Assembly (NCBI GenBank): GCA_024276605.1
Contig: JAJRWX010000050.1
Coordinates: forward strand, 5,695-69,694
Reading direction: 5' to 3'
DNA length: 64,000 nt
Source: Planctomycetota bacterium
GTDB lineage: Bacteria; Planctomycetota; Phycisphaerae; UBA1845
The notes under the pieces were generated by a model. The model had not been told where the DNA came from and did no database searches. It saw only the letters and a list, made by a program, of their open reading frames with translations. Positions 9,909-56,000 of this stretch are shown here, piece after piece. How positions within the stretch are numbered: position 1 is the stretch's first letter; each line of letters opens with the position of its first letter. The translations under genes and the position numbers were made by a program.

Positions 9909-11015
9909 ATGATGAGTATTGACCGCTACACAATAAAAGAGCTTGCTCTAACACGGCGTATACTCGTTTTACTGTATGTGACAACGTACTGTATGTTTTC
10001 GATGTGTGGGGGCTGTATCACTCACTCCCCCAATAAGGAACTGGTGTACTTCCCCGCCCCGCCGGCGGAACCGCATGTAGTGCATTTGAAATCGTTTAAT
10101 CGTCTTCACGATTTAGTCTCACCAAAGCTATCCTGGGTTGATCATATTCGTGGTGGGTTTGCCAGCCCCTTTGTCGCCACACCAGCCGGTATCGCCTATC
10201 ACAATCCACTTCTATATATCTGTGATACAGGCCAAGGCTATGTGCATCGTTGGAATCTACTAACGGGGCAAGCAACCCGCATTGGTGATACCGGCAATGT
10301 CACACTAGGGACACCCGTCGCCGTAGCGGTGGACGATAACCAGGATGTCTATGTGGCGGATACCAGCCGAGGCGAGGTCGTCGTCTTTGATCAAACCGGC
10401 GACATGATACATCAACTCAAACCCAAACAAGGCGAATCGATGAAGCCCGTAGCACTAGCCGTCCAAGCGGGAAAAGTGTATGTAGCCGACATCGCCCAGC
10501 ATCGCATCCTCGTATTCTCAGCGGCATCAGGCTCGTTAATCACCAGTTTCGGTGGCCCAGGCCATGCGCTCGGCGCGTTCTATTTCCCCATGGGACTAGC
10601 CACCGACCAGCATGGCCGACTATGGGTAGCCGACTCGATGAATGGCCGTGTGCAACAATTCGATCATGCCTTCAAGCCATTATCCTCTATCGGTAGTCTG
10701 GGCAATCGCTACGGTGACATGGGCAGACCTCGACACCTTGATGTCGGTCCGGACGGTGTCATCTTCGTGGCTGATACTGAATTCGCACACGTACACATGT
10801 TCGATCAAGATGGCCGATTGCTCATGCTCTTAGGAGGCCCCGAAGATCAACCTGCCGGCACACCCATGCCATTAGGCATTGCTATAGCCCGGGATGTACC
10901 TCCTCTCATTCGTGAACTGGCTCCCGCAACATTTGATCCAAAATATTACCTCTTCATCTCAAACACCGTGGGTTCACAACGCCTGAGCATCTTTGCCGTC
11001 GGAGTGAAGAAATAG
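9909..11015 (+). CDS. NHL-repeat six-blade beta-propeller (probable lipoprotein)
   Basis: Six NHL-like blades, e.g. PVAVAVDDNQDVYVADTSRGEVVVFD and FYFPMGLATDQHGRLWVADSMNGRVQQFD. The N-terminus is hydrophobic with FSMCGGC. Confidence 0.8.
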   Translation: MMSIDRYTIKELALTRRILVLLYVTTYCMFSMCGGCITHSPNKELVYFPAPPAEPHVVHLKSFNRLHDLVSPKLSWVDHIRGGFASPFVATPAGIAYHNPLLYICDTGQGYVHRWNLLTGQATRIGDTGNVTLGTPVAVAVDDNQDVYVADTSRGEVVVFDQTGDMIHQLKPKQGESMKPVALAVQAGKVYVADIAQHRILVFSAASGSLITSFGGPGHALGAFYFPMGLATDQHGRLWVADSMNGRVQQFDHAFKPLSSIGSLGNRYGDMGRPRHLDVGPDGVIFVADTEFAHVHMFDQDGRLLMLLGGPEDQPAGTPMPLGIAIARDVPPLIRELAPATFDPKYYLFISNTVGSQRLSIFAVGVKK

Positions 11016-12807: not shown

Positions 12808-13127
12808 CCAAATGCCGGTCAAGCGAATACACGCATCGGTCTGATCGGTCTGGTAGCTTGAAATGACTACCGGTATGACCATTTTATTCCCTTGACTCTA
12901 GCAAAAAAAATGTACGCTCGCGCAAGAGTTGCGCGTTAACTGTGTAGCCTGTGATTGTTAGTCAATTTTTTATATTCTGGCATGGATCATGCGAGGCAGT
13001 TGTTATTGTTGAGAAATGTGAGGGTTGACCGACTTTGTAACAATAGAAACTACTTGCCCCCTGTCATAACGCTAGGCGGGGGTTGTTGGAATTACAGTAG
13101 TAGAACAACGCATGAGGAGATCAGATT

Positions 13128-14756
13128 ATGCTCAGAAAACAAACCCCGAGTTGGAAGCCGCTCATGGCCGTTGGTGTGACGGTCTCGTTATTTAGTTTGT
13201 CACTTTTGATGGTAGGTTGTCCAGGGGGCACGATCCCTCCACCTGGCAACCCCTGTGACAATGTGGACTGCCAGGATGGTCAAACCTGTATCGACGGCAC
13301 ATGCGTAGCTGATGATACGGGCAATGCCCCAACCTTACAGGGGTTAGATGCGAACAAGGCCATGATCCTACCGTTTGCGGTACAAGTCGCATACAACGAT
13401 GACACTATGTTTTTTCACATGAGCTGGGAAGGCGACCGCGGGGATACGCACGATTATTTCCGATACACCAACGGCGCTTGGCAGCGTGAAGGCGGTGTCC
13501 GACGAGATGCCCAAGCAACGATCGATAACGATCCTCTGCGTGGTTCTACCAGTATAAACTCGACAATTTACGAATCCCGCGTCACATTTATGTTGGACGA
13601 CCCCACCGGTCCTAATGCCGTCGCAGGCTTCGCCCAGTATGGCTGCATGTTAACTTGCCATGACAATAGCCGAGCTATGCCACAATGGATTCATGACGAC
13701 GGTGAGGTTCATAAGTATCTACCGGATGATAAGCCCGGTCGCTTAGACCTATGGCACCACCGCCTGGGCCGGGCTAACCCCATTGGCCTATCTGACGATC
13801 AGTGGGTAGGTCTACGACAAGGTAAGGGTGATGATGGCGTCACCGACGAAGATGGCGGTTCCCGCCAGGGCGATGCAGGCACCGGACCATACGCCACGGG
13901 AAAGACCGATGGCGATGGCAATCCGCAGTGGGTATTCGACCCCAGTACGACCGGTGGCCTTTATGCCTTTGCCTTTGGGGACTTATTTACCAGCCCGATT
14001 CGTTATTTTGCGGATGACACCGCACTCAATATAGGCCCGAATGCACCGAACCCCATCGGTATCGATTACGCCGAAGCGATAGCCATGGGCTATGTGCCAA
14101 GTGAAGGCGATACCGTGCCTCGTCGTCGACTTCGACAAACAGAAGGTAGCCGGGGAGACATCACAGCAGCCGGTACGACTTTCACACCATCAGCCAACGA
14201 TCCGCTCTTTGGCCGATGGAATTCGAATATTCAGCGTGCCATGGATACTGGCAATGATGATGACACTGCATTGGTTGACGGTAACATTTACAACATCGCT
14301 TTCGCTGTCCATGTAGGCATGGTTACCGTGCGGGATCATTATGTATCCTTCGCCTACACCCTTTCGCTAGGCGGCGGTGATGCCGACATTCAAGCTGTGA
14401 AGATTTCAGGTAGTGGCAGCGCTACGCTTCCAGACTTCTCAGATACCGCGCAGTTCCCGGTAACTAACTTGAATACCTTCTTGCCAGGCATTACCAGCTA
14501 TGAATTTCTCAATGGTGATAACGCCGGGTTGGAATACATTGATCCTGCTACGGGCACAGCCGTTGACCAGAATCACGCAGGCGCTACCGGTTTAATGACG
14601 GGAGGCTTACGTTGCCAATCGTGCCATGCCGTTAGCGATGCTGACGTAGCATCCTTTACTGCATCGGGTACTGGTGCGTTCCCCGCTGGATCTATGGAAT
14701 CGCTGGCACCACAACGCGGCGGGGTGACCTCGCCAACGCCGCTTCCCCCGCCATAG
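13128..14756 (+). CDS. Lipoprotein with a small 4-Cys module, an EB_dh/DOMON-like putative haem-binding domain and one C-terminal CxxCH
   Basis: Lipobox LMVGCP, then PCDNVDCQDGQTCIDGTCV. MFFHMSWEGD and LDLWHHRLGRANPIGLSDDQW resemble ethylbenzene-dehydrogenase-type haem domains; this rests on my memory of the family and is not verified. Also CMLTCH (CX3CH) and CQSCH. Confidence 0.5.
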   Translation: MLRKQTPSWKPLMAVGVTVSLFSLSLLMVGCPGGTIPPPGNPCDNVDCQDGQTCIDGTCVADDTGNAPTLQGLDANKAMILPFAVQVAYNDDTMFFHMSWEGDRGDTHDYFRYTNGAWQREGGVRRDAQATIDNDPLRGSTSINSTIYESRVTFMLDDPTGPNAVAGFAQYGCMLTCHDNSRAMPQWIHDDGEVHKYLPDDKPGRLDLWHHRLGRANPIGLSDDQWVGLRQGKGDDGVTDEDGGSRQGDAGTGPYATGKTDGDGNPQWVFDPSTTGGLYAFAFGDLFTSPIRYFADDTALNIGPNAPNPIGIDYAEAIAMGYVPSEGDTVPRRRLRQTEGSRGDITAAGTTFTPSANDPLFGRWNSNIQRAMDTGNDDDTALVDGNIYNIAFAVHVGMVTVRDHYVSFAYTLSLGGGDADIQAVKISGSGSATLPDFSDTAQFPVTNLNTFLPGITSYEFLNGDNAGLEYIDPATGTAVDQNHAGATGLMTGGLRCQSCHAVSDADVASFTASGTGAFPAGSMESLAPQRGGVTSPTPLPPP

Positions 14757-14860: not shown

Positions 14861-15319
14861 GCATATCCAGGCGCTAATCATCAACCCTGTACGCATTGTT
14901 TAGTAAATCGACTTGCTACCGCTCAACGGCATCGGCATCCGAACGTAAGTATCTACCAATACGCTACTTACGTCATTACCAATCCTGGGCATACTTAGCC
15001 ACAAGCTCGGCCCGTATCCCGCTCAATCGATCATAGCCCACACGCTCCGCTCGAACAGGGTGAGCAACAATCCATGTGGTACCGCAAGCTAAGGCCGAAC
15101 AAATAAAATTAACTTGGAGACGAGGCGTAATTGTTACGACTCCGCCTACTTTCTCTTGACTAATATGATTTTTTCTCAATTATGGAATGACTTGCATGAG
15201 ACAGGTTGGCAATTACTAACTTTGAGAACCTATAGATCACAGGATTAAAAATGCCCTGGCGCGGGGCGTTGGTGTAGCACCTATTTCGATTCTAGTAAAA
15301 AGTATTAGGAGATCAGTCA

Positions 15320-16291
15320 ATGTTAAGAAAACGGATGATAAGTTGGCAACCGCTCATAGCCATCGGGGTAACAATGTTTATCGTAGGATGTCCTACCATC
15401 ACGACACCGCCGGACGATCCATGTGCCGGTGTGGACTGCACGGACGGCGAAACTTGCGTTGACGGTGTATGTGTCGCAGCACCAGTCGATACTACCGACC
15501 CTGTAGAGTTCACCAATGCAGACGGTATCAAAGGAGGCGCGCTGTACGACAAGTTTTACGACACACCGGATTTTGATAAAAATACTGATGACGCTGCGCA
15601 GATTATGGCATTTGGTGATTTCTTCCGCTGCAAACAGTGTCATGCTTGGGATCACCTCGGCAACATGGCCTCCTATATAGACCGTGCGCCAAAAACCACG
15701 CGGCCTAATGTGACTGCGATCAACCTGGCTGAACATGCCATGGACGAGTCTGCACAAGAATTGTTCGACGCCATAAAAACGGGAAATGGCGGACGACGAT
15801 CTGTGTCCGCTGATTTGTCCACTTACGATCCCGCTGATCCAACAACAACAGCTGTGGGCGATCAGATGCCCAATTTCGGCGAAATTCTCACGGACGCCCA
15901 GATATGGGATCTCGTCAAATATCTCAAAGAGGACTTTTTAGATACAACCCAGCTGTACGACATCGACATCACAGGAACGTATCCGGATGGAACACGGACA
16001 TTTTCAAATATCGGTAAAGACGGCGATCCGGTAAATGGGGATGCCCTATACGCAGCAAAATGTGCTGGATGTCACGGTGCAGACGGCCTTCTGATTCTCT
16101 TTGACAACGGTGAATTATCCATTGGCTCTTTCGCCCGTACTAAACCATATGAACTCTCTCACAAATCCAAGTTTGGTCAGCCCGGTTCAGCAATGGGGCC
16201 ACAAGGCATTAATACAATCGAGGATATGAAAGACCTATTCGCTGCGCTAGTTGATTCAACGAACTTTCCTGATCCCGCACCGGCCCCATAG
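15320..16291 (+). CDS. Dihaem c-type cytochrome lipoprotein with the same N-terminal leader and 4-Cys module as the 13128 gene product
   Basis: Lipobox FIVGCP, then PCAGVDCTDGETCVDGVCV. Motifs CKQCH and CAGCH. Confidence 0.75.
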   Translation: MLRKRMISWQPLIAIGVTMFIVGCPTITTPPDDPCAGVDCTDGETCVDGVCVAAPVDTTDPVEFTNADGIKGGALYDKFYDTPDFDKNTDDAAQIMAFGDFFRCKQCHAWDHLGNMASYIDRAPKTTRPNVTAINLAEHAMDESAQELFDAIKTGNGGRRSVSADLSTYDPADPTTTAVGDQMPNFGEILTDAQIWDLVKYLKEDFLDTTQLYDIDITGTYPDGTRTFSNIGKDGDPVNGDALYAAKCAGCHGADGLLILFDNGELSIGSFARTKPYELSHKSKFGQPGSAMGPQGINTIEDMKDLFAALVDSTNFPDPAPAP

Positions 16292-16318: not shown

Positions 16319-16353
16319 AAACCCGCGATCACTCGACGATCGCGGGTTTTTTA
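16319..16353 (+). terminator. Rho-independent terminator
   Basis: AAACCCGCGATC (16319-16330) pairs with GATCGCGGGTTT (16338-16349), extended by a T-run. Confidence 0.7.
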
Positions 16354-16704
16354 ACGCGCATTGACTGGCGTGGATGCTGTATTCATATTGCGCATGGTTA
16401 TACCTGTAGCGTACTGGATCCCCAGCCTGTTTGATGGAATTGCCGAAGTCGCAACGTGAAGGCATAAACATGCCAACGACGCTCCTTCCACACTCATCGC
16501 ATTTGACAAAAGCGTACAACACGCGGTAACACAAATGTAGCTCATGCCTCGATAGCGTTCACCAACCGCAGTGCAGCCGCATCTGGGCTTTTCTTCACGT
16601 ACTGACATCACGGACTTCTCAATACCGGCGGTTGGTGTTTCGTGAATTTGCTGATCGAAATTCACCGTTCGGCACGGAAATTGCGTGTAAATTACCGTAG
16701 AGCT

Positions 16705-16800
16705 AGCTCTATTAAACTGTAGTGTCCGGTAGCAGATTTTGGGGGAGGTTATCGATGTTTGACCGCTACACGCTATAGGAATGCTAGTGATGGTTTCATG
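16705..16800 (+). promoter_or_regulatory. Conserved leader-like element, copy 1, with GGAGG plus mini-ORF MFDRYTL (16755-16778)
   Basis: A 30-nt block (25 identical positions) and a 28-nt block (24 identical) are shared with 21149-21251. GGAGG lies 6 nt before the ATG. The element sits 40-130 nt upstream of the membrane cytochrome gene. Confidence 0.35.
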
Positions 16801-16841
16801 ATGTCATGCGTCTTCTGCCTATAAAGTTGGAATAATTGAAA

Positions 16842-19160
16842 ATGTCAGTTCATAGGATGCGTAAGTTATTGACCGCTATCGGGGCTATCCTGGCCATCGT
16901 GTCACTGATGACAATCATAACCTCCACCATTTTGAGCATATTGACTCAATCTGAGCCTATTGGCCTAGTCCTGGCCGAAGTTTTTACGCCGGCCATTTTG
17001 CTTCTCATCGGATTAGCCGGCATGCTCGGCAGCGCGCTCCTAGCTCGCAGACAAGGCTTAACTGTTCGTTTGTGGATGTTAGGTCTTGATGGGCTGCGCT
17101 CGCGCCACCTTGCCCAAGCAGGCTATACGATGCCAAGTGAGTTGTTGCAGGCGAACACCGAGCAGGATAACCCGTCGGCTTCAGATAATACGCCGACGAA
17201 ACCACACAACAAAATAAAGGATGATATGCCGTTCGACCAGCGCAAGCCATATCAACCAAAGTTTCCTCCAATGTGGAACAATTTCATTTCCTACACGGGA
17301 TTTTTTGTTTCACTAATGAGCATGCTGCTCATGCTGACATTTGGTTTGTTCAGCATGATATCTACCCACTCGAATCCCTATGTAGATATCATTGGCTACC
17401 TCGTACTACCGAGCGTATTGATCGCGGGTCTTGCATTTATACTTTGCGGTATTTTCATCAAGAGTTGGCGACTTAAGCGTACAGACCCTACCCAGAAATT
17501 AATCTTTCGCTTTCCACGCGTGGATTTCAATGATCCCATCCAGCGCAGGGCAGCGAAAGTTGTATTGGCCAGCTGTTTCATCTTGTTACCGGTGGTTGGT
17601 GTCAGTTCTTATCACGGGTATCACTACACCGATTCTGCCGACTTTTGCGCTAAAGCTTGCCATGCGGCCATGGAACCGCAAGCCACGGCTTATGAGTATT
17701 CCGCACATGCTCGTGTATCCTGCGCGGAATGTCATATCGGTTCCGGCGCAAGTTGGTTTGTGAAGTCAAAACTTTCCGGCACGCGGCAAGTCTTAGCCAT
17801 GTGGCAAGATTCGTTTTCCCGACCCATACCGCCGGCCATTACCGAACTTCGTCCAGCGCGAGAGACATGCGAAAAGTGTCATTGGCCAAAGAAATTTTTT
17901 GGTCAACAACTACGTCGCATTGTGCATTATAGATCTGACGAAGATAACACACGGCTTGAATTCGACATGCTACTCAAGACCGGCGGAGGCGATGAATCGA
18001 TGGGACGAGCTGAAGGCATCCACATGCATATGGCACTGGAAGGGAAAATTGAATATGTAGCCAACGACGACAAATTGCAGGATATTTCGTGGGTTCGTTA
18101 TGTGGATCGTACCGGCGTGGCATCAATCTACCGAAACGATGGAAATCCAAGCTCCGACCCCAGGCCAAAAGGTGTCATTCGCCGGCTTGATTGTATGGAT
18201 TGTCACAATCGCCCCGCACATAAATTTAAATCGCCCAAAGCTGCGATCGACATTTTTCTCGAAGTAGGTCGCATCGACACCACCTTACCTTTTATCAAGC
18301 GAGAAGCACTTGCTGCTTTAGTCGAACCATATCCTGATCGCGAAACGGCTGAGCGTGAAATAGGACGCCGTATGTTAGATTTCTATAAGAACCAATACCC
18401 CAATGTTTGGGATACTAGAAAAGCATCCGTCAAACAAGCGATCGATATGACACGACTAGCCTACCGTAAGAATTTTTTCCCGGATATGAAAGTCGATTGG
18501 CGCACCTATCCCGACAACATCGGCCATAAGATTTCCCCCGGCTGTTTCCGTTGTCATGATGGCTTGCACATCAACCAGAGAGGCGAACGACTGAGTCACG
18601 AGTGCAGCACGTGTCACACTTTCCTTAATCCGATCGACGAAAATGGGAGGAACTTGACCCAAGAAGGAGAATTTCAACACCCCTACGAGCTTGAGGGTTC
18701 ACACATATCTCTACGTTGCGACAAGTGTCATACCGGAGGCATTACACCGTCTACATCATGCCAAGGGTGTCACACAACGGTCGTCAACTTTCGTGCCGGT
18801 ACGCTGGCGGAATTTGAACTGGCCGCTCTCGAACCGGATGCCATGGTTGATGTTGATTGCGAGTCCTGCCATGATTTATCCGAACCCACTTCGATCGAAT
18901 CGATTGACGTGATGTGCATGGATTGTCATGACGGCGAAGAAGGCTTCGAAGGTATGTTAGCCTCCTGGGCGAAGGAGGCGGAAACATTACTATCGCATGC
19001 TCAAGAGAAAACCAAGGGCGATACGGTCAAACAAAACATCTTGCACGCGCTGCGCAAAGCAGGCCCGATGCATAATATGAAAGCCACACGATCCATCGTA
19101 CGAGAACTATTGTCATCAGAAAACGCGGCAACCAATCAAACAACAACAACAACAGATTGA
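16842..19160 (+). CDS. Membrane-anchored multihaem cytochrome (about 5 TM helices; 9 CxxCH plus 1 CX3CH), NapC/NirT-like candidate quinol dehydrogenase
   Basis: Hydrophobic helices occupy the first ~260 aa. Motifs follow in order: CAKACH, CAECH, CEKCH, CMDCH, CFRCH, CSTCH, CDKCH, CQGCH, CESCH, CMDCH. Start is ATG 16842 or TTG 16836. Confidence 0.8.
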   Translation: MSVHRMRKLLTAIGAILAIVSLMTIITSTILSILTQSEPIGLVLAEVFTPAILLLIGLAGMLGSALLARRQGLTVRLWMLGLDGLRSRHLAQAGYTMPSELLQANTEQDNPSASDNTPTKPHNKIKDDMPFDQRKPYQPKFPPMWNNFISYTGFFVSLMSMLLMLTFGLFSMISTHSNPYVDIIGYLVLPSVLIAGLAFILCGIFIKSWRLKRTDPTQKLIFRFPRVDFNDPIQRRAAKVVLASCFILLPVVGVSSYHGYHYTDSADFCAKACHAAMEPQATAYEYSAHARVSCAECHIGSGASWFVKSKLSGTRQVLAMWQDSFSRPIPPAITELRPARETCEKCHWPKKFFGQQLRRIVHYRSDEDNTRLEFDMLLKTGGGDESMGRAEGIHMHMALEGKIEYVANDDKLQDISWVRYVDRTGVASIYRNDGNPSSDPRPKGVIRRLDCMDCHNRPAHKFKSPKAAIDIFLEVGRIDTTLPFIKREALAALVEPYPDRETAEREIGRRMLDFYKNQYPNVWDTRKASVKQAIDMTRLAYRKNFFPDMKVDWRTYPDNIGHKISPGCFRCHDGLHINQRGERLSHECSTCHTFLNPIDENGRNLTQEGEFQHPYELEGSHISLRCDKCHTGGITPSTSCQGCHTTVVNFRAGTLAEFELAALEPDAMVDVDCESCHDLSEPTSIESIDVMCMDCHDGEEGFEGMLASWAKEAETLLSHAQEKTKGDTVKQNILHALRKAGPMHNMKATRSIVRELLSSENAATNQTTTTTD

Positions 19161-19165
19161 AACGG

Positions 19166-19445
19166 GTGGCCCATGTCCTTTCTTTTGGACATGGGGGAAT
19201 CGATGATAAACATACAGCGTCAAGATGACGTCACTACGTCTGGGTGCCCCATCCTTCGGGTACTCCCGAAGGGTGGGGAATGGATCTTGTTTCCGGCAAC
19301 GCAAGTGTCACTATCATAGCACGCAACATCCGTCCCCCACCCTTTGCCAGTAGGCAAAGGATGGGGCACCCATGCATAGCACGCAACATTCTCACCCATG
19401 CGATCATCGACTCCCCCACCTCGAAAACGAGATGGGCCACCCACT
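19166..19445 (+). repeat. Composite hairpin-repeat cluster: family-4 hairpin, family-1 double-hairpin element at 19243-19373, inverted family-4 hairpin
   Basis: CCCATGTCC/GGACATGGG hairpin at 19170-19195, 10 nt after the stop. CCCATCCTTCGGG-TACT-CCCGAAGGGTGGG and CCCCACCCTTTGCC-AGTA-GGCAAAGGATGGGG stems follow. Near-identical copies occur at 28378, 37519 and 38356. Confidence 0.75.
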
Positions 19446-19921: not shown

Positions 19922-20671
19922 CTACGACGCGACAATCACAGGTGCCGCGGGCGAACGTAAGATAAGTGTTTGTGAACCAATCCCGAAAGCGAGCAGTCCG
20001 ACGGACAGCGCTACGCGAATCAGCCACCATTTACCCTGTTGTGGCGCATGGATAGGTCGAAGTAATCCGGGCACAACTTGCCGCGATATAACACCATTGG
20101 TTGATACCCAGCGAACATATCCAAGCATACCGCCCGGTGGATACGACTGCCGCAAAAACTGTCTCGCTTGCTCTGCTACGGATGCCCGATACGCTTCAAT
20201 GGTTTGATCTTTTAGCTTTAATCTTGGGTTTCGAGAAGCATGAGCGGCTACCCATACCGGCATACCCCTGGCTTCTATCTCCAGTGACAACAACCAACAA
20301 AACAAAACGACAATCGTAGTGCCCACCAGCAAAGGCCACGTACCATAGGGACGTGCCCGGTGTAAAACCCGGTGCATCACAGCACCAATCATTAAGCCAA
20401 AAAGCGGAAAGAAAAACAAGCCAAGAAAAAAGGGAAGCTGCGCCGCATTTGAAAGTAACCAACCCAAAGGTACTGATGCGAGCAACCCGGCCAAGGTAGC
20501 CACGATCAGATGCCATCGGTTTTCATGTGAAGTCGAATGATCTTCAGAAGGCATCCTTTCATCTTCAACTTGACTCCGGCCTGTCGGTTGTATCGGAGAC
20601 GCGATTTCTTGAACATTGTTTACAGGTGTAGAGGTTACATCCTGTTCATGATCTATGTTCGTCGAATTCAT
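19922..20671 (-). CDS. Hypothetical polytopic membrane protein, translationally coupled to crcB
   Basis: ATGA overlap with the crcB stop (20668-20671). The central and C-terminal regions contain several hydrophobic helices. Confidence 0.5.
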   Translation of the reverse strand: MNSTNIDHEQDVTSTPVNNVQEIASPIQPTGRSQVEDERMPSEDHSTSHENRWHLIVATLAGLLASVPLGWLLSNAAQLPFFLGLFFFPLFGLMIGAVMHRVLHRARPYGTWPLLVGTTIVVLFCWLLSLEIEARGMPVWVAAHASRNPRLKLKDQTIEAYRASVAEQARQFLRQSYPPGGMLGYVRWVSTNGVISRQVVPGLLRPIHAPQQGKWWLIRVALSVGLLAFGIGSQTLILRSPAAPVIVAS

Positions 20672-21036
20672 ATACTGATCCACCACTTCGCCAGGCGATA
20701 ACCAACCCCTGCAGCTACAACACACGTCACTACGCTACCGATGATGTTCAACATCGCCAAGTAGTAATCCCGCGACTCCACTAATTTGAGCGTATCTAAT
20801 GAAAATGTACTGAAAGTTGTAAACCCGCCGAGCAAGCCGACCAGAATAGCGGAGCGCACGCGCGGGTCCAGCGATGAACCTTCCAGATGTTCGCTTAGAA
20901 AACCTATGGCCAAGCAACCCACCACGTTGACCGTGAACGTACCTATGGGAAAAGCAACATCATGGCGTTGTACGAACGTAGCCATCGCGTGCCGGAGCAT
21001 ACTCCCCACCGCACCGCCGAACCCCACGTACATCAT
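20668..21036 (-). CDS. crcB: Fluoride ion channel CrcB
   Basis: MMYVGFGGAVGSMLRH...GTFTVNVVGCLAIGF...GLLGGFTTFSTFS matches CrcB family hallmarks. At ~122 aa the length is typical when the start is placed at 21036. Confidence 0.85.
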   Translation of the reverse strand: MMYVGFGGAVGSMLRHAMATFVQRHDVAFPIGTFTVNVVGCLAIGFLSEHLEGSSLDPRVRSAILVGLLGGFTTFSTFSLDTLKLVESRDYYLAMLNIIGSVVTCVVAAGVGYRLAKWWISI

Positions 21037-21148
21037 ATGTGTCAAAAGATCTCTCCTCCTAAACGTCACCCTGCGAACTTGGCAAACGTCACAGCCACCA
21101 TATCTTGACGCATTGATCTGTCCCATGCAACTAGGCTTAATTAGAACA

Positions 21149-21251
21149 AGCTCTATTTAACTGTAACATCCCGTAGCATGTTGTTCACGGAGGTTTTCGA
21201 TGTTTCCACGCTACACTTGATTGTTAAACGCGCTAGTCACAGTTTGGTTTG
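21149..21251 (+). promoter_or_regulatory. Conserved leader-like element, copy 2, with GGAGG plus mini-ORF MFPRYT (21200-21220)
   Basis: Aligns with 16705-16800. It has the same SD-to-ATG spacing of 6 nt. No plus-strand gene follows it. Confidence 0.3.
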
Positions 21252-21321
21252 TAGGAAATAACTACAAGTCGGCAAAACATGGAAATCGCAGGCTATTGTT
21301 TGGGTGCAAGACCAACTAGGC

Positions 21322-21503
21322 GGGCTTGAGTGGGGTGGCATGGACAAGCGTCGCGTTTAAGGGATCGCAGATGAAAAGAGGCGTAGGAGCGACGCTTGCC
21401 CGTGCTTTTCATCGGTTGCGCTCGCACGGGCAAACGCAGCGAGCAGCATCCATTGGACATTCGACAGCCCGATTCCGCGGCGTTTGTCCATGCCACCCTC
21501 ACG
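21322..21503 (+). repeat. MITE-like element (family 5, copy a) with ~27-bp terminal inverted repeats
   Basis: GAGTGGGGTGGCATGGACAAGCGTCGC (21328-21354) is nearly the reverse complement of GCGGCGTTTGTCCATGCCACCCTCACG (21477-21503). An internal GCCCGTGC/GCACGGGC hairpin is present. It is homologous to 24075-24222. Confidence 0.55.
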
Positions 21504-21523
21504 CCAATTTTGTCATGCATCCC

Positions 21524-23191
21524 CTATTGTTTGGGCTGATCGCCTTTGGTCGACTTAGCCTTTACGTTTTCACGGGGCTTAGTCGAAGTAGGTCTAGCCC
21601 GGCGGGAAGTCGTACCAGTTGCCGGCTTGATCATCGGTCGCCTGTCTTTGGATGGCGCTACGAATTCAACGACTAGCGTGATAAACTGTTGATCTATCGT
21701 TTTGGCATGAGATACCGACGCTTTCGCGGTTGGATGAACTTTATCGGCTAAAGCACGCCCTACGCTTTTATTTTTCTCTCGTTTACTAGCTACGTTTTGT
21801 CGCAAGGCTGCTTCGCGTCTTTCAACCAACGGGCTATGACTAACACCTGACTCATCCGCGTCTTTGCGGTTACTATCATTCGGCGATGTGGAAACTACAT
21901 GAGCATCGTCACGGCGTTTGCTTGGACTACGCTGTCCCGAGGCCTCACGTTCGGTCGAAAGTTTTTTTGACTGGGTATCATCACTACTTATGGTATCTGT
22001 AAATGTGAACACGTCCTCCGGTAGCCCTATAGCCTTGATGATTTCAGCGAGAATATCATCTTCGGATTCTTTGACTTCAACTGACTTTTTAGTTTTTTCG
22101 TCCACACGCACGGTTGGTTCCATCGCTTCGTTTCGGGAATCCCCGAGGACCGGGGTCGGTGTTTGCTGAAAATGCGTAAGGCTCGTTTGGGCTTGCGCCA
22201 GACCGCGAACGACCAATGGGCCGGCAGATAGTGTGACATCCTTGTCCCTTACTCCATCGACGGCTATATGGTCCAGCAGTGTTTGCATGTCATCAATGGG
22301 AATACGCACCAACATTTGACTTTGATTGTCGCCGCGAAAATTTTGTCCCGTCCGTCCTTCATAATAAAACGATTGACGGCGCAACTTTGTAGGCTTAGTC
22401 AATGTCGTCCGCGCGCCGGCATCCACCAACCCCTGCGAATCCAATTGCTTCTTGAATGCCTCTCGGACCTGTTCAAGTTGACTGACGTCGCGCATGACTA
22501 ATCGCAGACGAACAGGTTCATTCCTAAAAGCATGGGAGGGTAGAAAATCAAGTTTCTCGCCGGTAGCCAGACGCTGCTCAGTGTGGGCCTGATCGAGAAT
22601 AGCCGGTGTAGATGCGACCCCTGTTCGAGCCATCGGACGATCAGATGCAGACTTCTCAACCGCATTGGGGACTATTGTAGCTACCGAACCGGGAGCTTTG
22701 CGGCTTCTGCTGCGTGCCATTCGGGTCATGTCCGTCGATCGTTTAGCCGTCGATTTACGTGTTTCCAAGCCCTCGGCATGCGCCTCGTTTTCTTCCATGA
22801 CCATAGCCACTTGGTCGAGTTTCAAATCATGAGATTGACCGGTCGGACGCATATACCACCAACCGCCCGTGATCACGATGGCCAACGCCGCAGCCATAGA
22901 TAGCATGGCACGCCACGGTCGCCATGAACCGGTGGCTTGATACGGTGTCACATTCGCGTCACCGAGAAGGGCCTGCCGTTCGAGCAATCGAATAACATCC
23001 CCAGCCATCGCTTCCGGCGCACGTTGGCGAGGCAGTGACGCCGTCAACTCCCGCGTGCTTCGTAAATCAGCCAACAGCGCCCGTGCAGATTCATCCCGGG
23101 CTAACTCACGCTCGATATATTCACGCTCGCGGGCATTCACTTCCCCATCCAGGTAGGCGCTCAATAGTTGGGCTAGCTGTTCGTGACTCAT
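21524..23191 (-). CDS. Anti-sigma factor (zf-HC2-like N-terminus, one TM helix, long low-complexity periplasmic region)
   Basis: LSAYLDGEVNAREREYIERELARDESARALLADL is typical of ECF anti-sigma N-termini. TM helix AMLSMAAALAIVITGGWWY. The gene lies downstream of an ECF sigma gene. Confidence 0.65.
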   Translation of the reverse strand: MSHEQLAQLLSAYLDGEVNAREREYIERELARDESARALLADLRSTRELTASLPRQRAPEAMAGDVIRLLERQALLGDANVTPYQATGSWRPWRAMLSMAAALAIVITGGWWYMRPTGQSHDLKLDQVAMVMEENEAHAEGLETRKSTAKRSTDMTRMARSRSRKAPGSVATIVPNAVEKSASDRPMARTGVASTPAILDQAHTEQRLATGEKLDFLPSHAFRNEPVRLRLVMRDVSQLEQVREAFKKQLDSQGLVDAGARTTLTKPTKLRRQSFYYEGRTGQNFRGDNQSQMLVRIPIDDMQTLLDHIAVDGVRDKDVTLSAGPLVVRGLAQAQTSLTHFQQTPTPVLGDSRNEAMEPTVRVDEKTKKSVEVKESEDDILAEIIKAIGLPEDVFTFTDTISSDDTQSKKLSTEREASGQRSPSKRRDDAHVVSTSPNDSNRKDADESGVSHSPLVERREAALRQNVASKREKNKSVGRALADKVHPTAKASVSHAKTIDQQFITLVVEFVAPSKDRRPMIKPATGTTSRRARPTSTKPRENVKAKSTKGDQPKQ

Positions 23192-23286
23192 CGGTTATAG
23201 CATCCGTAGGTTTTGATGTTTCGCATTGTTGTAGAAATCTTTCGATCAAACCGGGTATTGATGGCTACATAAACATAGCGCTTGTT

Positions 23287-23937
23287 TTAGTCACCCTCCA
23301 GACGAGTCTCATCTCGCAACCAAGGTTTCAATGTTTCTCGCAAGGCCATACGCGCTCGATGAAGACGGGACTTGACCGTACCAATCGGCAGTTCAAGAAT
23401 GTCACTGATGGTCTGATAGTCCATATCCTCGACATCGCGCAATACAACGACAGCACGTTGATCGTCATCCAGCGCCTGCATCGCTTCGAGCAGTTGATGC
23501 TGCAAAGTTTGATCTCGCATCGCATCCGAAGCGTCGTCGGTGTAACGCATCAGACCCAACGCTTGTGATGAAGCCAAGTCCTGCGTCTCGTCCAATTCGA
23601 CCGTTCTTCGCACACGGCTCGATCGACGATCGGATAGCGCTAAATTGACGGCAATCCGAAATATCCATGTATAAAATCCGCTCTCCTGGCGGAAGGACGT
23701 GATACGCTGAAAGGCTTTGAGAAACGCTTCCTGTGTCAAGTCACGAGCATCTTCAGCGTTTCCCGCAATGCGCCAGACCGCGTTATACACACGATCCTGA
23801 TACTTCACGATTAGCGCACCAAAGGCTTCGGATTTCCCAGCTTTCGCGCCCTTGATCAGTTCGGCATCCTCCAACGGAACCGGTTCCATTGGCCGACTCT
23901 CAGCCACCCGATTCCAATCCTTTGGACGCTCTACCAC
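23287..23937 (-). CDS. ECF-subfamily RNA polymerase sigma-70 factor
   Basis: Region 2 (DLTQEAFLKAFQRITSFRQESGFYTWIFRIAVNLALS) and region 4 (YQTISDILELPIGTVKSRLHRAR). Start is uncertain: GTG 23937 or ATG 23889. Confidence 0.85.
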   Translation of the reverse strand: MVERPKDWNRVAESRPMEPVPLEDAELIKGAKAGKSEAFGALIVKYQDRVYNAVWRIAGNAEDARDLTQEAFLKAFQRITSFRQESGFYTWIFRIAVNLALSDRRSSRVRRTVELDETQDLASSQALGLMRYTDDASDAMRDQTLQHQLLEAMQALDDDQRAVVVLRDVEDMDYQTISDILELPIGTVKSRLHRARMALRETLKPWLRDETRLEGD

Positions 23938-24074: not shown

Positions 24075-24222
24075 TGGGCTTGAGTGGGGTGGCATAGACA
24101 TGCGTCGCGGGCAAAGTGTCGCAGATTCTGAAAAGGCGTCTGTGGCGACGATGGCCTGCCTCGGCAGTAAAAATGGGGTGGAGCTACAACGCAGCGGGTT
24201 TCAGATTCCGCAGCCACCACTT
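24075..24222 (+). repeat. Family-5 repeat, copy b (diverged, right end truncated)
   Basis: GGGCTTGAGTGGGGTGGCATAGACATGCGTCGCG plus internal blocks TCGCAGAT, GAAAAGGCGT, ACGCAGCG and GATTCCGC are shared with 21322-21503 in the same orientation. Confidence 0.5.
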
Positions 24223-28356: not shown

Positions 28357-28377
28357 TGCGCCGCATGCATAGAATAT

Positions 28378-28711
28378 GTGCCCCATCCTTCGGGTACTCC
28401 CGAAGGGTGGGGGACGGATCTTGCGTCGAAAGGCATCGCAAGTGACACTATTATGTCACGAAACGTCCTTCCCCCCACCCGCTGATCCGAGCCGGTAGCG
28501 CCAGCGCCCGGTGTTTTCGGATAGTCACGCGCTGCGCATGTTCTACGTGATTGCGGCGTGTATGGCGTTTTGAAGACACGGGTCGCTTGCGCTCGCCGCT
28601 CGGATTAGTGGGGGATATATCTTGTTTAGCATGGTATTACAAGTGTCACTACTATTGCTCATGGCATCCTTCCCCCATCCTTTGCCGGTAGGCAAAGGAT
28701 GGGGCACCCGC
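28378..28711 (+). repeat. Nested repeat cluster: family-1 5' part (28378-28480), family-2 element (28484-28612), family-1 3' part (28639-28711)
   Basis: The first hairpin and middle of family 1 are followed by a ~130-bp element homologous in inverted orientation to 38619-38757. The middle and second hairpin of family 1 then follow. Confidence 0.7.
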
Positions 28712-37319: not shown

Positions 37320-37770
37320 AGGGCAGATCGTTCTTTCGCTAATGCAATAAGCATTTGCGAAAGGTTGACCTGCCTGAAATCATCAAGCTTCGGACTTCTG
37401 CACCATCAAGCGCACGTCGGCATGAGGTTTAGGTTAGACGTAGGTCAGCGCCGGGTGGCCCATCTCCTTTGGAGGTGGGAGAGACGATGATTGCGGGTTA
37501 CATCACATCATGCACAGGGTGCCCCATCCATTGGGTACTCCCAAAGGGTGGGGGACGGATCATGTGTCGAAAGGTACCACAAGTGTCACTGTCATTGCAC
37601 GGACTATCCTTCCCCCACCCTTTGCCAGTAGGCAAAAGATGGGGCACCCGCTTGTCCGCAGGCTGGCGCCGTGCGGCTCTGATTTGACATTCCACCGGTT
37701 GCAAGTATCTATGGCTACAGGCAGGTCAACCTTTCGCCAATTTTGGATTGGCGAAAGAACGACCCGCCCT
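37320..37770. repeat. Mosaic of hairpin repeats: family 3 inverted (37320-37374), family 4 (about 37457-37490), family 1 (37519-37651), family 3 (37655-37770)
   Basis: Each block has near-identical counterparts at 19166-19445, 28378-28711 and 38356-38960. Family 3 forms GGCAGGTCAACCTTTCGC...GCGAAAGAACGACCYGCC. Confidence 0.7.
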
Positions 37771-37797
37771 AAAGTTATCCCACATCACGAGTGTTGA

Positions 37798-38310: not shown

Positions 38311-38355
38311 GAGTTGACCAATACATTATGCAACGTTCACGGTAATGCCGCATGG

Positions 38356-38960
38356 GTGCCCCATTCTTCGGGTACTCCCGAAGGGTGGGGGACGGATCTT
38401 GTGTCAAAAGACGTCTCACATGTCACTGTAATGGCACTTCTCATCCTTCCCCCATCCTTTGCCAGTAGGCAAAGGATGGGCACCCGCAGCTGTAGAGCAG
38501 GTCGTTCTCTCGCCCCAAAGCGAAAGGTTGATCTGCTTTTATTATAACACATCGATCTTTCTTTGGGGTGCGATGTCCGGTCGTGCGACGGACTTGGTGG
38601 TCAATCTCGTTTTGAGGTGGGGGAGACCAAATCCGAGCGGCGAGCGCGAGCGACCCGTGTCTTTAACACGCCATACACACCGCAATCGCCTAGAACATTC
38701 ACAGCGTGGGTGATCATCCGAAGACACTAGGCGTTGGCGACTCAGGTGCTCATTCGGTTACGAACCAAGAGTCGACGTGCGGAGGTCCGCAGGCTGGCGC
38801 CGTGCGGCTCTGATTCGGTATTCCCGTTGGTTGCGCGTGCCGATGGTTACGGCAGGTCAACCTTTCGCAAATTGGCATTGGCGAAAGAACGACCTGCCCT
38901 ACCGACTTGGCACTTGCTGCATATCATCGTCTTCCCCATGTCCAAAAGGAAGGATATGGG
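38356..38960. repeat. Mosaic of hairpin repeats: family 1 (38356-38487), family 3 inverted (38497-38536), family 4 (about 38598-38628), family 2 (38619-38757), family 3 (38786-38900), family 4 inverted (38925-38957)
   Basis: Blocks were aligned by eye to the other loci. The ORFs called here on both strands (PHPSGVPEEWG, PILCLLAKDGG) are mirror translations of the hairpins. Confidence 0.7.
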
Positions 38961-53022: not shown

Positions 53023-56000
53023 ATGTCAAGTCGCTGTTGTCTGCCTATAGTGTTCGCGGCTGTTTATTTTCTACCGACGCAGGCCGTCGCGGTTATATCT
53101 ATTAGTCCCCAGCCGGGCTTTGGTATTGTTGAGATTGGCACTGAGGGGGAATTCTCTAACAGTCCCGTACCCGATAATGTGGCTCGGGCCTCGCGCGGCG
53201 CCGTGCCTTTTGGCGATTTCGAAGAGGGCGTCACATTCCTGATCCAAAACATCAACGATGGGCAATATGGGAATCTTAGCTCATGGCAAAGCAATTCTGC
53301 TGCTGGCGCGTATGTGGGCGTTGTATTTGCTGACCCGGTCGTCATTTGTTCGATCGCCTGGGGGCGAGACAACAATAGTCCTCAGAATATCGACGTGGGC
53401 CGCTGGCAAGATTCATATACACTCGAGATATCCTCCGACCCCAATGTTGCTTCTGACCCCGCAAATGCATCATGGACAACGGTTGGTACTGTTACATACT
53501 CTTTACCGCTAAATGGTCGAAAGTTATGGCTTCGCCATGAATATCGAATGTCTGAACTTGGTAACCCCATCGAGGCACGCGCGTTTCGTATTAAAGTCAC
53601 CAATGCGTTTATACGCATTGACGAAATCGAAGTTTATGCTGCTGCTCCAGCAAAAACTTTGTTTGTTGACGCCGATGTACCCGGTCCGGGAGACGGGCTG
53701 ACGTGGTCCACAGCGTTTAACAGTCTGCCAGACGCACTTGCCTTGGCGAGCTGTAATGTTGAAACCATTCGCGTGGCGCAGGGAACGTACATGCCCGACG
53801 GTGCCCGTATTGGCGACTCCGGATATCGGGCTGGCTCTGGTGATAAGACGGCTACAATTCAATTGATAGATGGTGTCAGGCTTGAGGGTGGGTACGCTGG
53901 TTTTGGCGAAGTGGACCCGGACCTGCGAGATGTGGTCGCGTTCCCGACGATATTAAGCGGCGACCTGAGCGGCGATGACGCGTCGGTTGCGAATCCCGTT
54001 GATTTATTGACGGAGGCTACGCGGGTAGAGAATAGCGATCATGTGGTGACGGGCAGCAACACGGATGCGACGGCTGTCATTGATGGGTTTACCATCGCAT
54101 ATGCAAATGCCATGAATGCACCCAACACCGCAGGCGGCGGTATGCTCATTGAGTTGGGTAGCCCTACGGTAAGCAACTGCACCTTCCTCGAAAACATCGC
54201 CGCGGGCGCTTCCGGCATGTGGATCGACCAAGGCGATCCGGTTGTGACAGACTGCGCGTTTACCAGAAACGCGGCAACCTCTTCCGCCGGGTTGGGCATG
54301 ACTCGCTCCAACAACCCGAGCGTGACGAATTGTGCATTTACAGATAATGCGTCCACCTTTAGCAACGGCGGTGGGATGTTCATTGATCAATCCAGTCCCA
54401 CAGTGACCAACTGCACATTCACTGGAAACTCTACGGACGCTAATGGCGGCGGCTTATACGCTGTAGGTAGCCATCCGGTCATTACCGACTGTACGTTTAC
54501 TCAAAATATGGCGGGCGTAGGCGGTGGTGGTCTTTATGTCACAACACTTGGTCAGGTAGACATCCACTCGATTGTGACCAATTGCCGTTTTATCGATAAC
54601 TCCGCTATGACCGGGGGCGGGATATATGCTTTTACTGCTGATGTTACACACAACAATTTAACAATTAATAATAGTAGCTTTAGCGGAAATACGTCGGCCA
54701 GCGGGGGCGGTGTAGCGATTCGTGACAGCAACTTGACAGCGATCAACTGTGCGTTCGATGGGAATCATTCCAGTGGGGACGGCGGCGCGATAAATTTCAA
54801 GCGTGTTAACCCCATTCAAACAGTTGGCATGGTGTCGGCAGCGGTGACGAACTGCGTGTTCCATATGAATACGGCAGCCGGTAATGGGGGCGCGCTGAAC
54901 GGTGTCATTGGCGCCAGCAACTCAGCCGGAGCGATCGTATCGGTAGAGGCGGAGATAGCTGTGACAAACAGCACGTTCAATGGGAATTCCGCGATCGGTA
55001 ACGGCGGCGCGATGGGCTATGCCGTCGGGAACGTGACTACCACAGGCGCGACACCAACCGTTTCTTTGGCGGTAACGGTATCAAACTGCATTATATGGGG
55101 TAACGCCTCTGCAGATAGCAAGCAGATAACCAATTCGATGGTTTCTCCGACACCTGTTATCCAATACTGCGATGTTGATGGTTCTGGTGGCAGTGGCACA
55201 GGGTGGGATACTACCCTTGGCATCGATGGGGGTGGCAACATCGACGCTGATCCGCTTTTTGTGGGCGTTAATGACCTCCAATTATCACCTGGTTCTCCAT
55301 GTATTGACAGTGCTCATTCCGGATTTTACGGCGCTGGCCCTTCAGTGGATATTACTGGTCATGACCGCATCTTTGATGATCCGGCGACGCTTAATACGGG
55401 TGGCGGCGGAGCATCTTTTCTTGATATGGGCGCGTATGAATTTTCGAGCAATAGCGGCCCGGGGTTTGCGGCTGCGGACCTCGACGCTGACGGCGACGTT
55501 GATGCGGATGATTACTTTATCTTTCATGGCGACTTTAACAGCGCAGCACGTTCGTCGGGTCGAACTTTTACTATGTCTAGGCGCGATGTCGGAATAACCT
55601 GGTTTGTTGACGCCGATGCTACCGGCCTGGCTGATGGCTTGAATTGGACCAATGCGTTCACTCATCCGCAAGATGCCCTCGCAACGGCACTCACCGGCGA
55701 CACGATTCGCGTGGCGCAAGGCACTTACATGCCAGACGGCGGGCGCATTGGTGATGCCGGCTTTGTGGCAGGTACGGGCGATCGGACGGCTACATTTCAA
55801 CTGATCGACGATGTAAGGATTGAAGGCGGGTACGCGGGCTTTGGCGAGGTAAACCCAGACCTGCGAGATGTGGTAGCGAACCTAACTATCCTTAGCGGCG
55901 ACTTAGGCAACGATGACATCGCAGTGGCAGACCCCGCAGATTTGGTCACCGAGCCTACGCGCGTTGAGAATAGCCATCATGTGGTGACGGGAAGCAATAC

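Follow-up and report, generated by a model that had tools for sequence, protein, structure and literature searches.

A short dispersed repeat of about 75–100 nt, specific to its lineage, was found in copies at two intergenic sites of a Phycisphaerae genome; with a little better than even confidence, it is best explained as a non-autonomous mobile element or the remnant of one. Both copies lie in a window of 64,000 nt (the whole stretch of DNA that was analyzed) on contig JAJRWX010000050.1 of the Planctomycetota metagenome-assembled genome (MAG) GCA_024276605.1 (Phycisphaerae; UBA1845). The mobile-element reading is supported by the comparison of filled and empty orthologous sites: copy 1 is absent from the L001 locus of a relative and copy 2 is absent from the loci L061 and L064, with the flanks conserved up to the element boundary. 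A Shine-Dalgarno (SD) sequence, an ATG and the following 6–7 codons would be part of the repeated unit and would move with it as cargo. The repeat family is best read as new.

Extent and Identity of the Two Copies

The core of copy 1 (16698–16771) was aligned with that of copy 2 (21142–21216) on the plus strand, and 58 of the 75 columns were identical, with one gap (Table 1). When copy 1 was searched against the whole window by sensitive blastn, copy 2 was recovered with an E-value of 1.6e-11, by which chance similarity of the two copies was ruled out; for the core, nhmmer gave an E-value of about 1e-23. The collinear core ends at CGCTACAC, i.e., at 16771 in copy 1 and at 21216 in copy 2. Its left edge is the 14-nt palindrome, which begins 7 nt before the start given in an earlier, sequence-only reading of the window. 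In that reading, three blocks had been described in shared order and orientation, the first two with 25/30 and 24/28 identical positions, and recounting returned the same values. The third block, GCTAGT.A..GTTT, is indeed present, but it is not significant alone, since it sits in tails (to ~16797 and ~21247) with an identity of 14/29. The tail of copy 1 falls inside 16698–~16792, the stretch that has no counterpart in L001, and this empty-site comparison suggests that the inserted stretch at copy 1 extends to ~16792. In the tail of copy 2, GTCACAGTT (21236–21244) is complementary to AACTGTAAC (21159–21167) at 8/9 positions.

Table 1. Features of the two repeat copies, the candidate partial copy and their surroundings (positions in the 64,000-nt window).
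Feature	Position	Strand	Basis or remark
Candidate partial copy, TTGACCGCTACAC + AAGAGCTTGCTCTA	9918–9951	.	first 14 codons of NHL-propeller lipoprotein gene (9912–11015)
Sigma-54-type -24/-12 motif GGCAC-N5-TTGC, GGCACGGAAATTGC	16671–16684	+	sole match in window
Copy 1 core, 74 nt	16698–16771	+	58/75 identity to copy 2; missing at orthologous L001 site
Perfect 14-nt palindrome TAGAGCTAGCTCTA, left end of copy 1	16698–16711	.	~+3 to +16 of predicted transcript
GGAGG (16744–16748), 6-nt spacer, mini-ORF ATG TTT GAC CGC TAC ACG CTA TAG (MFDRYTL*)	16744–16778	+	copy 1
Copy 1 weak tail with third block GCTAGTGATGGTTT	16772–16797	+	14/29 identity to copy 2 tail
NapC/NirT-type membrane multihaem cytochrome gene, 3' of copy 1	16842–19160	+	Pfam; 100% match to P0001
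crcB (fluoride channel), copy 2 upstream on other strand	20668–21036	-	Pfam CRCB domain; homologues
crcB promoter-like block (GGTTGCnn...GTCAAGATA)	21085–21141	-	three-genome alignment; promoter function inferred
Copy 2 core, 75 nt	21142–21216	+	missing in orthologous anti-sigma/crcB spacers of L061, L064
Degenerate palindrome TAGAACAAGCTCTA, left end of copy 2	21142–21155	.	palindrome scan
GGAGG (21189–21193), 6-nt spacer, mini-ORF ATG TTT CCA CGC TAC ACT TGA (MFPRYT*)	21189–21220	+	copy 2
Copy 2 weak tail with GCTAGTCACAGTTT	21217–21247	+	alignment
Anti-sigma/ECF-sigma pair	21524–23937	-	far side of copy 2 spacer

Filled and Empty Orthologous Sites

The gene behind copy 1 had been named a membrane multihaem cytochrome gene in the sequence-only reading, and Pfam agreed by assigning it to the NapC/NirT type. 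It ends a cluster of genes for multihaem cytochromes, NHL-propeller lipoproteins and an EB_dh-like haem protein, and the homologues of the cytochrome found by protein search belonged almost all to Phycisphaerae or other Planctomycetota MAGs. The nearest available relative for copy 1 was L001 (GCA_029260115.1), in which the cytochrome is 73% identical and its gene follows the EB_dh-like gene as in the window. The two sequences were aligned through CGGCAC(A/G)GAAATTGCGTGT and about 10 nt beyond it, and the alignment resumed at TTCATG and continued down to the start codon; L001 keeps CGGCACAGAAATTGCGTGTGAGTATTACGG as well as the downstream TTCATG...AGTTGGA...ATG. Between the aligned flanks, L001 has 12 nt as compared to 95 nt in the window (16698–16792). 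By this alignment, copy 1 was shown to be a discrete insertion directly behind a conserved sigma-54-type promoter motif. No match to the element was found upstream of the cytochrome gene of L015, and in L016 and L017 the gene lies inside an operon without the element.

The sigma-54-type motif is kept in L001 (9911–9924), and GGCACG-N4-TTGCT occurs upstream of related cytochrome operons in the more distant Phycisphaerae L016 (593–606) and L017 (600–613), which suggests that the cytochrome electron-transfer genes are under sigma-54 control. Sigma-54 promoters have a usual spacing between the -24/-12 motif and the transcription start, and this geometry therefore puts the predicted transcription start at ~16696. 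Copy 1 begins about 2 nt past this predicted start and would thus be transcribed as the beginning of the cytochrome mRNA.

Some further features of the cytochrome locus were recorded. A perfect 8-nt inverted repeat, GTGAATTT-N8-AAATTCAC, lies at 16642–16665 (~-54 to -31), directly upstream of the sigma-54-type motif; it could be a regulator or IHF-type site, and the palindrome is not kept in L001. An ORF of 104 codons on the minus strand (16351–16665) was considered as a divergent partner gene and rejected, having no Pfam match and no homology to the L001 ORF at that place. Likewise, TTGACCGCTA at the cytochrome start (16869) was judged a chance match rather than a piece of the element, because about ten 10-mer matches were expected and seen and because L001 shows ordinary coding sequence there. 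Farther upstream, the EB_dh-like gene and the next gene, encoding a dihaem cytochrome c (15320–16291), share about 70% identical DNA over the ribosome-binding site and the signal-peptide codons (13101–13180 vs. 15293–15372). The dihaem cytochrome c gene is absent from the syntenic L001 locus, and the similarity looks like a 5'-end duplication accompanying gene gain or loss.

Copy 2 had been placed 110–215 nt upstream of crcB, on the opposite strand and without a downstream plus-strand gene. With the Pfam-supported crcB start at 21036 the distance was measured as 106–211 nt, and no plus-strand gene was found after the copy, in line with that description. The spacer between crcB and the anti-sigma/ECF-sigma pair, which holds copy 2, has 487 nt. 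Two relatives were compared, L061 (CrcB 92% identical, ~75% at the DNA level) and L064, which belongs to the same genome as L001. Both keep the order ECF sigma, anti-sigma, crcB, a gene of unknown function and NUDIX, and both keep the crcB promoter-like block, while their spacers to the called crcB starts have 266 nt (L061) and 155 nt (L064) vs. 487 nt in the window, and the element is in neither. The flank conserved in L064 stops at ~21142–21146, where the similarity to copy 1 starts. Thus compared, copy 2 was shown to be a discrete insertion that adjoins the crcB promoter-like block on its upstream side. This block, common to the window, L061 and L064, may also be written GGTTGCnn-N17-CAAGATA (within 21037–21141, minus strand). 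A fluoride riboswitch often precedes crcB; none was detected by Rfam at crcB in the window, L061 or L064.

As one of several options, the sequence-only reading had proposed a mobile promoter cassette. Mobility was borne out by the comparison, both copies being insertions relative to orthologous sites; the promoter part was not, since at copy 1 the sigma-54-type promoter precedes the element and is older than it.

The palindrome at the left end of both copies gave rise to another reading, in which AGAGC-NN-GCTCT would be a shared operator, and the regulator bound to it would jointly control the cytochrome gene, crcB and an NHL-propeller lipoprotein gene. Allowing up to three mismatches, the palindrome was matched at three places only within the window (16698, 21142 and 9937), and its predicted positions, ~+3 to +16 relative to the sigma-54 promoter and ~-55 relative to the crcB promoter-like block, would be plausible for regulation. 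However, an operator accounts for 12–14 nt and not for 75 nt of collinear similarity, and the sites are missing from the orthologous promoters of the relatives. A shared operator is therefore regarded as very unlikely.

The two copies point in the same direction on either side of a 4.4-kb segment, an arrangement that is not predicted by random insertion and carries little weight at n = 2. It would be expected if the copies were att-like or attC-like direct-repeat recombination sites bounding the segment (16.8–21.1 kb), whose neighbourhood differs from that of the relatives: in GCA_029260115.1 the cytochrome and crcB loci are on different contigs. In addition, ATTTAAC (21157–21163) ... GTTAAAC (21223–21229) of copy 2 resembles the R''/R' boxes of integrons. 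An attC site is an imperfect palindrome, R''/L''...L'/R', with RYYYAAC and GTTRRRY boxes, and stands in a cassette array with or without intI. An integron attC site was rejected, as the boxes were found in copy 2 only and neither a cassette array nor an integrase in the window. Recombination sites in general are contradicted by the 77% identity of the repeats, by the lack of any integrase or recombinase gene in the window, and by the cytochrome gene being in its ancestral place beside the EB_dh-like gene, so that hardly any probability was assigned to this reading.

The Shine-Dalgarno Site and the Mini-ORF

The GGAGG-N6-ATG spacing and the mini-ORFs of seven (16755–16778) and six codons (21200–21220) were found as the sequence-only reading had reported them. 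Conservation between the copies is blocky: the block from the SD sequence to the ATG is identical at 16 of 17 positions, the third codon is fully changed, and 8/8 positions are identical in the codons after it. Such blocky conservation is a pattern that is also expected of a functional translation start. Within the window, GGAGG-N4-9-ATG occurs six times, i.e., at two true gene starts of the cytochrome cluster, at the two mini-ORFs and at two intragenic positions. From its sequence, the SD-ATG site would probably initiate translation if it were transcribed. Selection on the mini-ORF is not readable from its conservation, because there are only two copies and these share ancestry.

These features are the basis of a rival reading, according to which the mini-ORF is a functional upstream ORF or leader peptide: ribosomes on the mini-ORF of the sigma-54 transcript would tune the cytochrome, and copy 2 would be another instance with transcription of its own. 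In its favour, the SD sequence is strong and ideally spaced, as at the two true starts in the cytochrome cluster; no other part of the element is as well conserved as the SD-ATG-codon block, and copy 1 is within the predicted 5' UTR. On the other hand, no terminator or alternative-hairpin architecture is present downstream, the element is missing from the orthologous L001 leader and from the region upstream of the L015 gene, copy 2 has neither a recognizable plus-strand promoter nor a downstream gene, and the conservation is inseparable from shared ancestry at two copies. Upstream-ORF control is therefore regarded as unlikely.

The specific proposal of a leader peptide or attenuator fared no better. 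No terminator-like hairpin was found at 16700–16900 between the mini-ORF and the cytochrome start, nor after the mini-ORF of copy 2, and the predicted leader of 185 nt (16696–16880) folded with z = +0.48 relative to shuffled sequences. Since a terminator, a significant fold, conservation in the L001 leader and a plus-strand gene behind copy 2 were all missing, the attenuator reading was not supported.

The intergenic position and the repetition of the element would also suit an independent small RNA gene on either strand, which had been offered as an alternative to a leader. With RNAalifold, the two copies gave a 7-bp stem with one compensatory pair on the minus strand and, on the plus strand, an outer stem kept by two G.U changes. 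These hints come from two sequences, favour opposite strands and are too few to weigh. Minimum free energy folding of the copies on both strands gave z-scores of -0.67 to +1.17, i.e., no better than shuffled sequences. No promoter/terminator pair for an independent RNA was found at either copy, and Rfam returned no match at gathering thresholds in the whole window; at E-values up to 10, it returned noise only (E > 3) at 16600–16900 and nothing at 21030–21530. The small-RNA reading thus found no backing and is considered highly improbable. An ECF-sigma or sigma-70 promoter inside the element was looked for by eye and by scan, and no convincing match was seen.

Further Copies and Other Repeats

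Searches for additional copies were extended to the window, to related loci and to sequence collections. A two-copy nhmmer profile detected no third full copy in the window. With up to three mismatches, neither 17-mer matched anywhere in the window beyond the two copies except at 9991–10007. The element was absent from 17 related loci by nhmmer, with no trace of it in L061–L065, L001/L002 or L015–L017. In genome and metagenome contig collections, which do not include the window itself, the exact pattern of block 1 had no match, and that of block 2 matched 12 loci. Ten of these represent one conserved unrelated sequence (one titled record is a Bacteroidales genome), and the remaining two were rejected as copies, being pattern-only matches. 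Pattern scans of a viral collection gave chance matches of pattern length only, and plasmid BLAST gave no match to the element. In total, the 64 kb hold two clear dispersed copies and one marginal, partial one.

The partial candidate is located where the NHL-propeller lipoprotein gene begins (Table 1). Three separate motif searches (TTGACCGCTACAC, AAGAGCTTGCTCTA and GTTTTCGATGT) each returned one extra site, and all three sites fall in 9918–10007, i.e., in the first ~33 codons of this gene. The 13-mer TTGACCGCTACAC is common to copy 1 and the NHL gene without mismatch and is read in the same frame (MSIDRYTI, codons 4–8, vs. MFDRYTL), and the palindrome AAGAGCTTGCTCTA follows 6 nt past it. The site is also the best extra nhmmer match in the window, in inverted orientation and with E = 0.24, and the order of its motifs is unlike that of the element. 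In simulated windows, the 8-mer clustering statistic was equalled in 3 of 200 (p ~0.015). Among the 120 homologues listed, DRYT in the first 40 residues is confined to the protein of this genome, and the closest NHL homologues have short, ordinary lipoprotein signal peptides. Because this N-terminus is unique among the homologues listed, the first ~13 codons are read as a lineage-specific extension, and the N-terminal extension MSIDRYTIKELAL likewise belongs to this genome alone among them. That the NHL gene start is derived from the element is suggestive and not established.

The NHL site bears on two readings. In the first, the repeat is the relic of a duplicated host-gene 5' end, e.g., that of the NHL lipoprotein gene (9912), which would have spread by local duplication or gene conversion and not by transposition. 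The in-frame 13-mer with the nearby palindrome and the clustering statistic favour this origin, as does the other 5'-end duplication of the window, in the EB_dh-like and dihaem cytochrome c genes. Against it, the nhmmer E-value is just 0.24, the 46 nt of the element upstream of the SD sequence are unmatched upstream of the NHL gene, the motif order in gene and element differs, and both insertions are sharply bounded in otherwise orthologous intergenic DNA. A host-gene relic is accordingly given a small probability. The second reading makes the repeat a portable cassette for translation initiation, in which ~80 nt of mobile DNA would carry a strong SD sequence, an ATG and a few codons. It would provide an upstream ORF where it lands in 5' UTRs and a new start with an N-terminal extension where it lands at the 5' edge of a gene, as at the NHL lipoprotein, and might perhaps have been co-opted to retune the extracellular-electron-transfer cluster. 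This cassette is a speculative and quite improbable extension of the mobile-element reading.

Other repeats were present in the window. In the spacer of copy 2, the remainder of the window-specific DNA is a separate MITE-like element of ~220 nt (21302–21522), an imperfect palindrome between the anti-sigma stop codon and copy 2. Its inverted ends have 23 nt with 91% identity (21333–21355/21476–21498), its left ~80 nt recurs at 24076–24156 upstream of the ECF sigma gene, and L061 and L064 lack it in this spacer. The convergent junction of the cytochrome and NUDIX genes is filled by a nested palindromic repeat (19164–19442) with G+C-rich hairpins, e.g., CCCCATCCTTCGGG/CCCGAAGGGTGGGG. This family has four copies in the window, the others, also intergenic, being at 28375–28709, 37516–37649 and 38353–38486. 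The junction may mark a rearrangement, because the cytochrome and crcB loci of the relatives are on different contigs. Next to copies of the palindromic family, intergenic direct repeats (37654–37771 vs. 38785–38901) are 93% and 88% identical over 40 and 34 nt, respectively. Given the neighbouring MITE-like and palindromic repeats, the genome is therefore taken to be rich in short intergenic repeats that are missing at the relatives' sites. Within coding DNA, an ORF of 1464 codons (53023–57417) contains internal repeats in units of 300 nt with 70–75% identity, ~1.9 kb apart; its product is probably a repetitive surface protein.

A Probable Mobile Element and Its Possible Effects

According to the preferred reading, insertions of a short mobile element occurred at two or more intergenic sites in this Phycisphaerae genome. 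The element was not filed as a MITE, because inverted repeats are essentially lacking, a target duplication was unreadable and a parent insertion sequence (IS) was not identified in the available sequence. Terminal inverted repeats were limited to 9 nt at 8/9 identity in copy 2, and in copy 1 none of at least 6 nt was found beyond the terminal palindrome; by eye, the ends show weak similarity (GAGCTAGC ... GCTAGTGA). The flanks are ~70–75% identical to the empty sites, which is too divergent for a target-site duplication of 2–9 nt to be read. No transposase domain was found in the Pfam-scanned ORFs across the 64-kb window.

If the SD sequence and the mini-ORF are cargo, their conservation in both copies reflects recent common descent and not any demonstrated function. 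Possibly, the SD sequence and the ATG are left over from the start of a gene, e.g., that of the transposase in a parent insertion sequence. As cargo, they would add an upstream ORF to the cytochrome mRNA at copy 1, whose transcript would make up the first ~95 nt of this mRNA. The leader would be lengthened from ~85 to ~145 nt and would gain, besides the translatable upstream ORF, a 5'-terminal hairpin or palindrome. At the other site, the palindrome of copy 2 would come to lie ~55 nt before the start site of crcB. Expression, if affected at all, would change as a side effect of the insertion, in the manner of Correia elements in Neisseria.

If this reading is true, one more short dispersed repeat family is added, in poorly studied, uncultured Phycisphaerae with repeat-filled intergenic DNA. 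It would alter the 5' end of the cytochrome mRNA in a putative extracellular-electron-transfer cluster, and its second copy abuts the crcB promoter-like block, so that each insertion could have brought about a lineage-specific change in expression. The case is also cautionary, in that a well-spaced SD sequence with a mini-ORF recurring upstream of genes can be repeat cargo and not a regulatory leader. Inspection of empty orthologous sites is a quick way to tell the two apart.

Comparison with Known Systems

Copy 1 resembles the trpL, ermCL and cat/cmlA leaders in having a short ORF with a good SD sequence in the 5' leader of a gene that would be regulated. Unlike these attenuators and stalling leaders, it comes without terminator/antiterminator hairpins and without conservation in orthologous leaders, and copy 2 lies outside any leader. 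To our knowledge, the mini-ORF peptides bear no resemblance to known stalling peptides.

Usually, the left end of an insertion sequence opens with a terminal palindrome or repeat, and an SD sequence and an ATG come no more than ~50 nt after it. Solo IS left ends, i.e., a left end with the transposase start, therefore have the layout seen in the element; they differ from it in that no parent IS, transposase or right end was found here in the available sequence.

Short repeats whose reading frames give codons to host genes are known from Rickettsia palindromic elements and from intragenic ERIC and BOX elements (PMC10969869). The Rickettsia elements (~150 nt, palindromic, in-frame inside genes) would be analogous to the NHL extension (9918–9951) only if the NHL site is real; here, the intragenic case is marginal (E = 0.24) and the two clear copies are intergenic.

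In placement and in how it would work, the element resembles the Correia repeat-enclosed elements, MITEs of Neisseria with ~100–150 nt, which are dispersed, intergenic and often directly upstream of genes, as is the repeat described here. In Correia elements, the terminal inverted repeats measure 26 nt, the duplicated target is TA, and copies number in the hundreds. By contrast, the inverted ends are weak or absent here, two to three copies are visible in the window, and there is no sequence similarity to Correia elements. Insertion of MITEs just downstream of promoters, with co-transcription and with ORFs or promoters carried along, is documented (PMC10969869). In particular, one Correia element, inserted immediately behind the mtrCDE promoter, is part of the transcript and alters expression (PMC10969869), and its placement corresponds to that of copy 1 directly behind a promoter.
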